Assembly (NCBI GenBank): GCA_018651725.1
Contig: JABIDK010000014.1
Location: 70,625 to 134,624 of the forward strand
DNA from: Candidatus Falkowbacteria bacterium
GTDB taxonomy: Bacteria > Patescibacteriota > Patescibacteriia > JAACEG01
Reading direction: 5' to 3'
Length of the DNA: 64,000 nt
Made by a program: the position numbers and the translations under genes. The notes under the pieces are model-generated. The model ran no database searches. It saw nothing but the letters and a program-made list of their open reading frames with translations, and was not told the DNA's origin. Below, in pieces: positions 22,361-27,040 of this stretch (position 1 is the first letter of the stretch; every line of letters starts with the position of its first letter).

Positions 22361-24337
22361 ATGGAAAATCCAAATTTTTTAAAACAAAAATACAACTTAC
22401 ACAACACTCCGGAAGCAGATTCAGCCGCCAAAAGAACAAAAAAAAGAACAGGCGAAAAAGTTTCTCAAAAGCCGGGCGAGAAAATACAGAATTATTTAGA
22501 TAGATTCAATGAAATTATCGAACGCAAAGATCCGGACAAAAAAGAACGAGGCATTGGAGCGCTTAAAAGAATACTCCATAATAAATTTGTTCTTAAAGAG
22601 GATGAGATTCCGCAAACATATTACAATTTACAAGGCGAAATCGCCGTAGAGGAAGGCAGGACACAGGAGCTTATTGATAGTGGCGTAGAAATAGAAAATA
22701 AAAAAACTAAAAACAAGAAAGGTGAAGAAATTGAAGAAAAAGAATTTATTTTTCCAAATAAGATAAAAAAGGAATTATCAGAAGTCATTATTGCCGATCA
22801 AGAAAGCACTATGGATAACTGGATTGATTATTTATCATCAGATGATGCTCAATATCCTGATTGGCTTAAGTATTATGCTTTTCGAAATATGCTTAACTTA
22901 GGTAAATACGACAAGGAAAGAAAAAAGTTTCCGCCAAGAGAGCTTCCTGACCGCTCGGATAAGCCAAAGAAAAAAGAAAATTTAACCACCGCCCCTTTTC
23001 CCGACTTAAATCGTGAAGCCCTGGCTTATGTTTTGGATGCAATCGAAAAGAAGCATAAAAAAGAAGGCATTAACCTGGAATTCCAAGACGAAGAAGAAAA
23101 AAATAATTTTCAAAAAATACTTCAAGGAGAAAATTTTGCCAAGCTCTACGCCTGGGCGATTGAAAAAGTAACTCCGGCCTCACAAGAAGTCTTGGAAACC
23201 GTCAAGGGCAAATGGATAAAATACGACCAAGGCACAGATCATATGCCTTTGGTTAACTCTCTCCAGGGCCACGGCACTGGCTGGTGCACAGCCGGAGAAT
23301 CAACTGCTCGGACCCAATTACAAGGAGGAGATTTTTATGTTTTTTACTCTGAAGATGAAAATAATAATCCAATTATTCCTCGCGCCGCTATCAGAATGGA
23401 GGGGCAAAGCAAAATAGCCGAAGTAAGAGGCATTGCCCATGAGCAGAACTTAGACGCTCATATCACAGATACGGTTAAAGAAAAAGTGAGCGAATTCGGA
23501 GAAGAGGGCAAAAAATACGAGAAAAAATCAAAAGACATGAAGCACTTGACTGAAATAGAAAATAAAACTAAAAATAACCAAGAATTAACTAAGGATAATT
23601 TAATTTTTCTCTATGAGATAGATGACCCTATTGAAGGCTTTGGCTACCAAAGAGATCTAAGAATCGAAGAAATCCGAAAGATAAGAGACACGGAAAAAGA
23701 TGCATCTATTGTTTTTGAATGCGACTCAAATCAAATCGCCAAAAACATAAGCGAAATAAACGAAAACACCGAAGCCTATATCGGAGAGTGGGATCCAAGT
23801 ATCTATCAAGAAATCAGAAAATACCCAAACATCAAACATCTTTACGAATCTTTTCCGGATAAAAAGATATTCAAGATGAATTTGGAGACTGATCCAAGTA
23901 TCAATTCTCCTCAAACCGCCCTAGAAGCGCTGGAAGGCGAAAATATATATTTAACAAACTGGGCAAAGGATATTTTAAAAGAAACTAAGTTCAGTAAAGA
24001 AAAACAAAACCAAAACCACGAATTAGTCAGATTTACAGTTAAAGAGCTTGGATTTCCAAACGGAGCAACAACCAAAGAAATTTACGATAAACTAGAAGAG
24101 CTTGGGCTGGATCTTTGCCCAACTGAAACAGGACCACAGCTCAGGCTAAAGTATCCGGGCAAAGAGTGGATGTTGATTGCCATGGAACCGATTGCCGACT
24201 CCGATGGCGATCCGGACGTGTTCGATCTGCGCGGGGCTTACGGGCAGCTGGGGCTCCTTGCCCATGACGCTCGGCCCGGCGACAGGTGGCGTCCAGGCGA
24301 CAGGTTCGTCTTCCGTCCCCGCAAGTTGGATTCTTAG
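22361..24337 (+). CDS. DGR target protein; uncharacterised N-terminal region plus C-terminal variable domain (probably C-type-lectin-like)
   Basis: 658 aa; its last codons contain the VR; C-terminal RFVFRP motif typical of DGR targets; no signal peptide seen. Confidence 0.88.
   Translation: MENPNFLKQKYNLHNTPEADSAAKRTKKRTGEKVSQKPGEKIQNYLDRFNEIIERKDPDKKERGIGALKRILHNKFVLKEDEIPQTYYNLQGEIAVEEGRTQELIDSGVEIENKKTKNKKGEEIEEKEFIFPNKIKKELSEVIIADQESTMDNWIDYLSSDDAQYPDWLKYYAFRNMLNLGKYDKERKKFPPRELPDRSDKPKKKENLTTAPFPDLNREALAYVLDAIEKKHKKEGINLEFQDEEEKNNFQKILQGENFAKLYAWAIEKVTPASQEVLETVKGKWIKYDQGTDHMPLVNSLQGHGTGWCTAGESTARTQLQGGDFYVFYSEDENNNPIIPRAAIRMEGQSKIAEVRGIAHEQNLDAHITDTVKEKVSEFGEEGKKYEKKSKDMKHLTEIENKTKNNQELTKDNLIFLYEIDDPIEGFGYQRDLRIEEIRKIRDTEKDASIVFECDSNQIAKNISEINENTEAYIGEWDPSIYQEIRKYPNIKHLYESFPDKKIFKMNLETDPSINSPQTALEALEGENIYLTNWAKDILKETKFSKEKQNQNHELVRFTVKELGFPNGATTKEIYDKLEELGLDLCPTETGPQLRLKYPGKEWMLIAMEPIADSDGDPDVFDLRGAYGQLGLLAHDARPGDRWRPGDRFVFRPRKLDS
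24191..24326 (+). repeat. DGR variable repeat (VR)
   Basis: 136-bp ungapped copy of 24667-24802 with 22 mismatches, all opposite TR adenines. Confidence 0.96.
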
Positions 24338-24432: not shown

Positions 24433-24441
24433 TGCTATAAT
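24433..24441 (+). promoter_or_regulatory. Extended -10 promoter element, candidate for TR-RNA transcription
   Basis: TG-C-TATAAT. Confidence 0.5.
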
Positions 24442-24666: not shown

Positions 24667-24802
24667 ATTACCGACTCCGATGGCGATCCGAACGTGTTCA
24701 ATCTGAACGAGAATAACGGGCAGCTGAAGCTCAATGCCAATGACGCTAAGCCCGGCAACAGGTGGAATCAAGGCAACAGGTTCGTCTTCCGTCCCCGAAA
24801 GT
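24667..24802 (+). repeat. DGR template repeat (TR)
   Basis: 39 adenines, 10 AAY codons in the VR reading frame; non-A positions identical to VR. Confidence 0.96.
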
Positions 24803-24813
24803 CGTTTCTTTTT

Positions 24814-24845
24814 CCGCGGTTACCTAAAATTGCGGTTTTTCTTTT
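24814..24845 (+). terminator. Hairpin plus U-tract just 3' of TR (candidate end of TR RNA)
   Basis: CCGCGGTT-ACCTAA-AATTGCGG-TTTTTCTTTT. Confidence 0.45.
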
Positions 24846-25224
24846 CAAAGTTTTTTAGACTATTTTTCCAACCCCCAAACATTTTACCGATTTCATCCAA
24901 CTTGAAAACAATTTCTTCATATTGTTTATTTGAAATAAATTTTGCTTCCCAAGCAACATGAATCAAAAATTTAAGCGTATCTAAAATAAGGATACACTTT
25001 GAAATTTTATCCATCTTCGTTTCTTTTTTAGAAAAATATGCGATATAGGAAATTTCAAGCAAATCAAGAAATTTATTTTCAATTCTAGCGCCAATGGTAA
25101 AGCGCGCAGTTTTCTTAATATGAGGAACAATATTAATCCAAATCAAATATCCCTCTTTGATGCGTTGCAAAATAGAAGATTTATCGAGAGAGAGAGAGAG
25201 AGAGAGAGTAAAAGGCTTCGCCAT
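24820..25224 (-). CDS. avd: DGR accessory variability determinant Avd (four-helix bundle), antisense orientation
   Basis: 134 aa, basic and helical; R(F)TIG.RI, LDTLKFLI, EIGKMFGGW motifs; lies between TR and RT. Confidence 0.85.
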   Translation of the reverse strand: MAKPFTLSLSLSLDKSSILQRIKEGYLIWINIVPHIKKTARFTIGARIENKFLDLLEISYIAYFSKKETKMDKISKCILILDTLKFLIHVAWEAKFISNKQYEEIVFKLDEIGKMFGGWKNSLKNFEKKNRNFR

Positions 25225-26193
25225 ATTTACAATAATATCATTTCTTTTGATAATTTGCTAATTTCCTGGCAGGAATTTTTGCGAGGGAAAAGAAAAAGAA
25301 AGGATGTCGCGGAATTTCAACTTAATTTTAGTGATAACGTTTTACAGCTTCATCATAATCTTCAAAATAAGACATATAATCATGGTGCTTACCAGGCGTT
25401 TAAAATAAACGATCCGAAGCCAAGAAATATCCATAAAGCTAGCGTGCGAGATCGGATGGTACATCACGCGATTTATAGAATTCTATATCCTTATTTTGAT
25501 AGAAAATTTATTTATGATTCTTATTCTTGTAGAATTAATAAAGGGACACATAGGGCAATAAATAGATTTCGGGATTTTAGCTATAAAGTTTCAAAAAATA
25601 ATATCCGTATTTGTTGGATTTTAAAATGCGACATCAAAAAATTTTTTGCCAGCATTGATCATAAAATTTTGAAAGATATTTTAGAAAAATATATAGCGGA
25701 CAAAAACGCTTTGTGGTTGCTCTTGCGAGTTATAGATAGTTTTAGCAGTAAAAATAAAATAGGAGTCGGCTTGCCGCTTGGAAATTTAACTTCACAACTT
25801 TTAGTAAATATTTATATGAACGAGTTTGACCAGTTTATGAAGCGTGAAATTAAAGCAAAATATTATATCCGCTATGCCGATGATTTTGTTATAATAAGTG
25901 AAAATAAAAAATATTTGGAGGATCTTATTCCAAAAATTTCAAAATTTCTTGAAGAAAAATTAAAGCTCTCACTTCATCCAAATAAATTATTTATCAAAAC
26001 GTTAAATTCCGGAGTTGATTTTTTGGGTTGGGTTAATTTTTCTTATCATCGGGTATTGAGGACGACAACAAAAAGGAGAATGATTAAAAAAGTTACATTG
26101 AAACATAATACGGAATCAATTGCTTCATATTTAGGAATGCTTTCGCATGGAGATGCTTATAAGCTTTCCGAAGAAATTTTATCTAATTTATAA
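25120..26193 (+). CDS. DGR reverse transcriptase
   Basis: RDRMVHHA, LKCDIKKFF, GLPLGNLTSQ (DGR-type), YIRYADD, GVDFLG; 357 aa with no maturase, endonuclease or RNase H domain. Confidence 0.95.
   Translation: MRNNINPNQISLFDALQNRRFIERERERESKRLRHIYNNIISFDNLLISWQEFLRGKRKRKDVAEFQLNFSDNVLQLHHNLQNKTYNHGAYQAFKINDPKPRNIHKASVRDRMVHHAIYRILYPYFDRKFIYDSYSCRINKGTHRAINRFRDFSYKVSKNNIRICWILKCDIKKFFASIDHKILKDILEKYIADKNALWLLLRVIDSFSSKNKIGVGLPLGNLTSQLLVNIYMNEFDQFMKREIKAKYYIRYADDFVIISENKKYLEDLIPKISKFLEEKLKLSLHPNKLFIKTLNSGVDFLGWVNFSYHRVLRTTTKRRMIKKVTLKHNTESIASYLGMLSHGDAYKLSEEILSNL
25186..25208. repeat. G(AG)11 dinucleotide microsatellite inside the RT/avd overlap
   Basis: GAGAGAGAGAGAGAGAGAGAGAG; encodes ERERERES on + and LSLSLSL on -. 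Confidence 0.95.
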
Positions 26194-26312: not shown

Positions 26313-26384
26313 GCGCCCGTAGTTCAACGGATAGAACACCAGCCTTCTAAGCTGGTTATGGGGGTTCGATTCCCTCCGGGCGTA
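26313..26384 (+). tRNA. tRNA-Arg(TCT), CCA not encoded
   Basis: Acceptor GCGCCCG/CGGGCGT; anticodon arm CCAGC-CTTCTAA-GCTGG; T-loop GGTTCGATTCC. Confidence 0.93.
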
Positions 26385-26472
26385 CTGAGTATTTTATAAA
26401 ACGGTAGAGCGATAAGAATAACCACAAACCGTTGACTTTACATTTTATATTTTAGTGGTATACTTAATATGT

Positions 26473-26943
26473 ATGTCGCAAACAAAATGTAAAATTTGTC
26501 AAAAAGAGTTTTATATTAGGCCTAGTCGTTTAAAGATTGGTTGGGGAAAATATTGCTCAATTAAATGTAGAAACGTTTCACAGCGAACAGGACGATATCT
26601 TTTTTGCGCAGTATGTAAGAAGAAAATATGGAAAACTCCCAAAGAAGAAAGATGTTCAAAGAGCGGAAAATTTTTTTGTAATAAATCTTGTCAAACAAAA
26701 TGGAGAAATAAATATTATTCTAGAGAAAAACACCATTTTTGGATTAATGGTAAAAATGTTTATCGGACAATAATGTTAGAGCAAAAAGATAAGCCAGTTT
26801 GTAAAAAATGTAAAGTTAAAGATGTTAGAGTTTTAGTGGTTCATCACAAGGATCATGATAGGGAAAATAATAAAATAAATAATTTAATGTGGTTATGCAG
26901 AAATTGTCATCATTTAGTACATATTCACGATAAAAAAGTTTAA
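26473..26943 (+). CDS. Zinc-finger-repeat HNH endonuclease
   Basis: Repeated CxxC...(Y/F)CxxxC modules and C-terminal CKKC..VHHKD..NN..NL.WLCRNCHHLVH; ATG 26473 preferred over GTG 26455. Confidence 0.85.
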   Translation: MSQTKCKICQKEFYIRPSRLKIGWGKYCSIKCRNVSQRTGRYLFCAVCKKKIWKTPKEERCSKSGKFFCNKSCQTKWRNKYYSREKHHFWINGKNVYRTIMLEQKDKPVCKKCKVKDVRVLVVHHKDHDRENNKINNLMWLCRNCHHLVHIHDKKV

Positions 26944-26951
26944 TATATCAT

Positions 26952-27025
26952 GGCGGGGTTGGTGAAATTGGTTATCACTCGAGTTTGTGGTACTCGCGTC
27001 ACGGGTTCAAATCCCGTACCTCGCC
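26952..27025 (+). tRNA. tRNA-His(GTG) with encoded G-1
   Basis: G-GCGGGGT/ACCTCGC-C acceptor; anticodon arm CGAGT-TTGTGGT-ACTCG; GGTTCAAATCC. Confidence 0.92.
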
Positions 27026-27040
27026 CAGAATTTATAACAT

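Follow-up and report, generated by a model that had tools for sequence, protein, structure and literature searches.

An AG repeat in the head-to-head overlap of RT and avd as a candidate phase-variation switch of a Patescibacteria DGR

Introduction

Phase variation driven by simple repeats is well known from the CT repeats in outer-membrane genes of Helicobacter and from the poly-G/C tracts of Campylobacter and Neisseria. The DGR locus described here and its relatives resemble such SSR contingency loci in that the repeat lies in the 5' coding region, length alleles shift the reading frame, the body of the gene is intact in the off state, and mismatch repair is weak or absent. The known loci, however, control genes of a single strand, for surface or restriction-modification functions, whereas here the genes under the control of one tract would be two, would lie on opposite strands, and are themselves a mutator.

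For DGRs, it is somewhat more probable than not that Paul et al. 2017 described poly-G or AG purine tracts close to the 5' end of RT genes in CPR and proposed slippage as a form of regulation, as is reported of that work; it is not known to deal with the gating of an antisense avd, with an in-register double overlap, or with avd-only as opposed to avd-plus-RT types. If the attribution is right, the RT half of the present finding is already in print. A full-text literature search that covered neither Paul et al. 2017 nor Macadangdang et al. 2022, where a prior account would most likely be found, returned no repeat tract tied to DGR regulation. Likewise, no repeat tract in DGRs was found in the portions consulted of the main texts of PMC8144416, PMC8632793, PMC5758913, PMC8867640, PMC10907252, PMC10053308, and PMC4372165.

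In the prototype DGR of Bordetella phage BPP-1, avd is encoded on the same strand, upstream of TR, in the order avd-TR-RT, and Avd is essential, according to passages of Wu et al. (PMC5758913). The B3 architecture, TR-(avd)-RT, makes up 90% of the CPR DGR set of Wu et al. 2018, as stated in the same passages. With the CPR-type B3 DGRs described in parts of PMC5758913 and PMC8144416, the present element shares a target with VR, a TR, an antisense avd, an RT, adenine-specific differences, and a remote second target; no 5' overlap or repeat was found in these parts of the two B3 descriptions. The activity of clade 2 (CPR) DGRs is given as lower than average in the relevant passage of Roux et al. 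2021 (PMC8144416).

Materials and methods

Relatives were counted in two sets. The genome set consists of the best 80 of at least 545 confirmed RT relatives in species genomes, aligned on the RT start region, and almost all of these 80 loci come from Patescibacteria lineages. One locus (L075) was too short for the tract count, leaving 79 loci, and nine of the 80 contained no tract or no avd match, leaving 71 loci for the frame analysis. The metagenome set was obtained by a pattern scan, which gave at least 118 AG-type loci; among the 118 listed, six without an RT match and one (L126) with most of RT deleted were excluded, leaving 111 usable loci, 95 of them distinct. The search pattern fixes 13 of the 66 leader bases in the metagenome set, and related loci are not independent, so that P values overstate the significance; the genome set (best 80 of at least 545) is independent of the pattern and serves as an internal control. 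The search pattern itself dictates the stop count in the +2 frame, and this count forms no part of the evidence. A further 60 relatives were examined for a close copy of the locus; none was found among them (best, 74%), and these loci stand outside all counts.

For the source population, contigs of four sequencing runs (X1–X4) were used. Runs X1 and X2 date from 2016 and 2018, belong to one study, and are possibly the source of the window; X3 dates from 2019. Two RNA runs, in which under a tenth of the words were present, were left out of the comparison.

Results and discussion

Organization of the DGR locus

The window, i.e. the whole stretch of 64,000 nt that was analysed, contains a complete DGR consisting of a target gene with VR, TR, avd, and RT. 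Its features are as follows.

22361..24337, + strand: target gene, 658 aa, no Pfam match
24191..24326, + strand: VR, at the target gene's 3' end
24667..24802, + strand: TR, 22 mismatches to VR, 22 of 22 at TR adenines
24814..24845, + strand: hairpin and T-run, terminator-like, just 3' of TR and across the avd stop
24820..25224, - strand: avd, 134 aa, bAvd-like, PF22296; ATG at 25224, predicted to be read through the tract
25120..26193, + strand: RT, 357 aa, PF00078
25120..25185, + strand: RT leader, ATG followed by 21 codons, antisense to avd codons and in register with them, kept stop-free in relatives
25186..25208, no strand assigned: repeat G(AG)11 / C(TC)11, the proposed switch, allele in frame
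25222..25224, no strand assigned: CAT, a His codon of RT on the + strand and the avd start codon on the - strand

The mismatches between TR and VR are at adenines, RT and Avd are of the DGR type, and VR varies within the population; between TR and RT, avd runs on the opposite strand, as in the B3 architecture. The DGR is an ordinary one for its group. Residues 31-340 of RT align with residues 3-302 of the homologous Bordetella bRT (E = 7e-43), and the best solved relative is PDB 8UB7. RT residues 1-30 form a leader, encoded antisense to avd and then by the tract, but a leader of this kind is lacking in bRT. None of the solved structures was matched by Avd at the sequence level.

The repeat tract and the two-frame overlap

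An earlier note, made from the letters of the window, had singled out the tract at 25186-25208 (23 nt) as the only long dinucleotide run. It is indeed the sole dinucleotide run of at least 10 nt in the window and, beyond that claim, the only one longer than 11 nt in the whole genome (920,786 bases), where the next-longest run measures 11 nt. The genome-wide first-order Markov expectation for a run like G(AG)11 is 2.6e-9. The same note described RT (+ strand, ATG 25120) and avd (- strand, ATG 25224) as overlapping by 105 bp at their 5' ends, and both ORFs were confirmed, with matches to PF00078 and PF22296, respectively. The overlap is head to head and in-register antisense, both frames stay open through the tract, and the assembled allele is thus in frame for both genes, as had been noted.

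Start codons in the RT frame are ATG 25120 and TTG 25165, and none follows until TTG 25255, which encodes the L of the conserved ...FDNL, and ATG 25456; the statement that RT has no ATG, GTG, or TTG between the tract and its first helix therefore stands. In the avd frame, the starts are ATG 25224 and an alternative TTG at 25170. A His codon of avd spells the start codon of RT, and a His codon of RT spells that of avd. A change by one AG unit was expected to frameshift RT, and avd too if it starts at 25224, and this is what computation gives: the gain or loss of one or two units truncates the RT product at 29-47 aa and that of avd at 13-27 aa, and a change by three units brings both proteins back to full length.

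Conservation of the repeat among relatives

In 75 of 79 relatives (from the best 80 of at least 545), a simple repeat lies no more than 100 bases from the conserved N-terminus of RT, and the remaining 575,485 bases of the genome-set loci contain 10 comparable runs. The units of these 75 tracts are G (60 tracts), AG (13), GT (1), and CT (1). On an RT tree of 74 rows, which is weakly supported (6 of 71 branches strong), the unit changed at least six times and an own RT start was gained or lost seven times. Because the unit changes at least six times at the same place, slipperiness rather than sequence seems to have been kept, i.e. what is conserved, judging from the aligned loci, is a slippery run at a fixed place and not its sequence.

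Four of the 79 relatives (from the best 80 of at least 545) lack the tract, i.e. L008, L030, L067, and L074. In L008, L067, and L074, the avd ATG is in frame with the avd core, and these three loci look as if they were locked on; in L030, avd lies further upstream and has a short AC-type repeat of its own. Interrupted or mixed tracts, in which AG repeats contain an embedded G-run or a T, were observed in L020, L036, L106, L143, and L216 and are possibly intermediates between AG and poly-G tracts or stabilised alleles. In the excluded AG-type locus L126, the deletion of most of RT begins directly behind the tract.

Translation of RT and avd through the tract

The proposal that RT probably must be translated through the tract is supported for loci that lack an own RT start, including the present one, but not for the 45 of 71 genome-set loci (best 80 of at least 545) that have an ATG or GTG for RT behind the tract; no such codon is found in the other 26. 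An ATG located 50-80 nt before the tract and followed by an open frame in the avd register is present in 23 of the 26 loci without an own RT start and in 3 of the 45 with one. In the first 17 avd codons, antisense-stop codons amount to 2/83 in the former group versus 52/161 in the latter, and the corresponding figures for the rest of avd are 146/397 and 204/708 (all from the same best 80).

A similar picture was obtained for the AG-type loci of the metagenome set, among the matches listed. An ATG at the place of 25120 is found in 93 of 95 distinct loci, and the leader is stop-free in 94 of 95. Leu codons of avd are TTA or CTA in 0/243 cases in the overlap versus 227/891 in the rest of the gene, and TCN codons are TCA in 0/133 versus 109/327 cases. 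The RT ATG at 25120 is the antisense of an Avd His codon, and the ratio CAT:CAC is 98:3 in the overlap versus 35:21 in the rest of avd (matches listed). An in-frame ATG behind the tract is present in 18 of 111 listed AG-type loci. Homology to bRT begins right behind the tract, and a start at ATT 25225 would cost only five homologous residues.

For avd, the RT His codon that spells its ATG shows a CAT:CAC ratio of 59:1 in the genome set (best 80 of at least 545), versus 587:415 elsewhere in RT, and of 96:1 among the listed metagenome matches, versus 641:440 elsewhere; a CAT in the RT register was found in 111 of 111 listed AG-type loci, and a nearby CAT is missing in a minority of the best 80 genome-set loci. 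Between the avd ATG and the tract, TTA, CTA, and TCA, i.e. antisense stops, make up 0 of 48 RT-frame Leu/TCN codons, compared with 905 of 2821 in the RT core (relatives listed). The alternative TTG at 25170, raised earlier as a caveat, does exist, but its weight is reduced by comparison: the codon at this place is TTG in 43 of the 95 listed AG-type loci, and the surrounding stretch has no ATG, GTG, or TTG in 50 of them and an ATG in none. Since the CAT is kept, antisense stops are avoided, and TTG 25170 is poorly conserved, the start of avd most probably lies ahead of the tract in the majority of these elements.

Taken as codon-level comparisons, these data show both leaders to be under selection as coding sequence, and at AG-type loci both RT and avd appear to be translated through the repeat. 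Avd appears to be gated in most relatives and RT in a subset only, which includes the present locus. As at SSR contingency loci, the repeat is placed by this codon-level selection in both leaders inside a translated region, and its unit is not a multiple of three.

Tract length alleles and reading frame

The comparison of tract length and frame in homologous CPR DGR loci that the earlier note called for revealed five near-identical sets of relatives with unequal tracts, i.e. length alleles, taken from assemblies, between otherwise identical loci, as known from contingency loci. Among the matches listed, tract length differs in 3 of 13 multi-member clusters with identical flanks and is equal in the other 10, some of which may represent the same sample assembled twice. 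The tracts of L127, L175, and L210 measure 19, 17, and 15 nt, respectively, and each of the three frames is represented; over 1,834 bases, L127 and L175 share 99.7% identity, and their alignment contains a single 2-base gap. The other two clusters have tracts of 27 and 29 nt (L148 and L206) and of 29 and 37 nt (L155 and L195). Two further pairs were found across the sets: L003 and L118, with tracts of 25 and 19 nt and no mismatch in 2,886 flanking bases, and L004 and L212, with tracts of 37 and 21 nt. In-frame and out-of-frame members occur together in three of the five sets. These length alleles are those of assemblies, in which dinucleotide runs can be mis-assembled.

In-frame tracts were found in 21 of 95 listed AG-type loci and in 10 of 71 genome-set loci (best 80 of at least 545), both shares being lower than the one third expected by chance. 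RT is intact in 40 of 42 listed metagenome loci and in 59 of 61 genome-set loci (best 80 of at least 545) that are out of frame and have enough sequence, as would be expected of a reversible state.

Alleles in the source population

In the three runs whose contigs cover the tract (X1, X2, and X3), its length is the same 23 nt, with neither a gap nor a length variant in 3/3; X4 has no coverage there. The tract is thus not an artefact of one assembly, and the in-frame allele is dominant in the samples of 2016-2019. An invariant tract length across reads and relatives had been named as one observation that would speak against switching; relatives do vary, and 23 nt is the only length in the contigs of X1-X3. 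A single allele limits but does not refute switching, because contigs drop rare variants.

A second VR allele is present in X3 and X4 and differs at 17 places, every one of them (17 of 17) facing an adenine of TR; a single allele was found in X1 and X2. Because the changes lie only opposite TR adenines, the in-frame element has worked. Two VR alleles amount to modest activity, and being in frame does not equal high activity. The contig with the variant VR was also considered as the remote VR and was rejected on account of 20 differences.

At position 24770, TR has A in the window and C in all four runs, VR also having C there, and the A may stem from an error in assembly or represent a minority allele. 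Breaks in the contigs of X1-X3 lie at 25117-25146. In X2-X4, a contig is present that shares 25120-25161 and then continues into unlike sequence ending in a G-run. This contig probably belongs to the DGR of another organism with a poly-G tract, and the shared leader stretch suggests that the doubly coding leader is conserved at the DNA level.

Proposed switch and alternative explanations

We consider it likely that the repeat acts as a translational phase-variation (contingency) switch on both genes. RT and avd would each start on their own side of the overlap, and both would have to cross the tract. Slipped-strand mispairing during replication would change the tract by one AG unit and throw both frames out together, and every third step would restore them. 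Out-of-frame cells would lose both RT and Avd, and hypermutation of the two target genes would be confined to the in-frame subpopulation. In the relatives with an own RT start behind the tract (about two thirds), only Avd would be gated. A profile search of the 94%-complete genome gave no match to MutS_V or MutL (11 of 14 controls were found), which would favour slippage, and NucS gave a weak match only, under the cut-off.

Leakage is an alternative, in which RNA polymerase or the ribosome slips on the tract, out-of-frame alleles still yield low amounts of RT and Avd, the tract length adjusts these amounts, and alleles at the DNA level are secondary. Consistent with it, about four-fifths of the assembled relatives listed have intact genes although they are out of frame, selection acts on both leaders in out-of-frame relatives as well, and VR diversity is low in the in-frame population. 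We nevertheless regard it as unlikely: DNA length alleles exist between near-identical loci, four different repeat units are in use, and a single recoding signal would not readily serve genes that cross the tract on opposite strands. We give still less credence to the tract being a purine-rich ribosome-binding or other RNA element for an RT that starts at a downstream ATG, or at ATT 25225 here, with the frame irrelevant. The distance from the tract end to the start, 9-52 nt and mostly 13-20 nt, is long for a Shine-Dalgarno sequence, CT and GT tracts exist, and such an element leaves unexplained the avoidance of stops in both leaders, the CAT ratio of 96:1 (matches listed), and the loss of stop avoidance in exactly those loci that have their own RT start. 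These points outweigh the starts behind the tract (45/71 loci from the best 80 of at least 545; 18/111 listed AG-type loci), the purine bias of the + strand (73 of 75 tracts from the best 80), and the onset of bRT homology behind the tract, all of which it would accommodate.

It is hardly credible, finally, that the tract is a neutral microsatellite, or an artefact of assembly, within an N-terminal extension that the protein can spare, with the out-of-frame copies dead or mis-assembled. Repeat lengths do come from short-read assemblies, and two of the best 80 genome loci (L006 and L016; of at least 545) begin inside the tract. The run is, however, the sole one of its kind in the genome and of equal length in three runs, a tract occupies the same place in 75 of 79 relatives (from the best 80 of at least 545), the out-of-frame copies are intact, and many of the length differences concern tracts of 15-25 nt, shorter than a read.

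The phase-variation switch may also be part of a wider arrangement. RT and avd, interlocked in register, would form a stochastic master switch built into the DGR, in which a single slippery repeat activates the entire mutator in a minority of lineages and which has been kept across the Patescibacteria radiation, with repeated changes of the repeat unit and of the reach, which is either confined to Avd or extends to RT as well. We hold the chances of this reading to be evenly balanced, including its claim that the two-strand form of such a switch has not yet been described. A switch of the proposed kind would be one of mutation rate, itself set by mutation, on two strands at once. The frame can be read from the sequence, so that the idea is testable in existing metagenomes, where in-frame elements should show more VR diversity than those out of frame. 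Gating could also account for the lower activity of the Patescibacteria clade given in the passage of Roux et al. 2021 (PMC8144416), an agreement that is not a test. Such a switch would also mean that in many CPR genomes avd and RT starts are probably mis-called and elements discarded in error as truncated.

Other features of the locus

The hairpin/T-run motif 3' of TR is kept in 54 of the 61 listed AG-type loci whose sequence reaches far enough, and that at 24814-24845 may be the end of the TR RNA. If so, RT would need its own promoter inside the antisense avd. A candidate promoter of the TR RNA is TG-N-TATAAT at 24433-24441, about 230 bases before TR, which corresponds to the extended -10 consensus. 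A promoter scan gave 8 matches compared with 7.8 in shuffled sequences, i.e. no excess, and this candidate is absent from its list.

Just 3' of RT, genes for tRNA-Arg (26313-26385) and tRNA-His (26953-27026) flank an ORF with an HNH domain (26455-26943), and the GC content of the DGR region is only modestly above that of its flanks. A second, remote target (690 aa) is encoded outside the window on the same contig, 82 kb away (G000:C13:10600-12672), and its C-terminal 364 residues share 49% identity with the local target. Its VR (C13:12526-12661) differs from TR at 22 places, 21 of which are at adenines.
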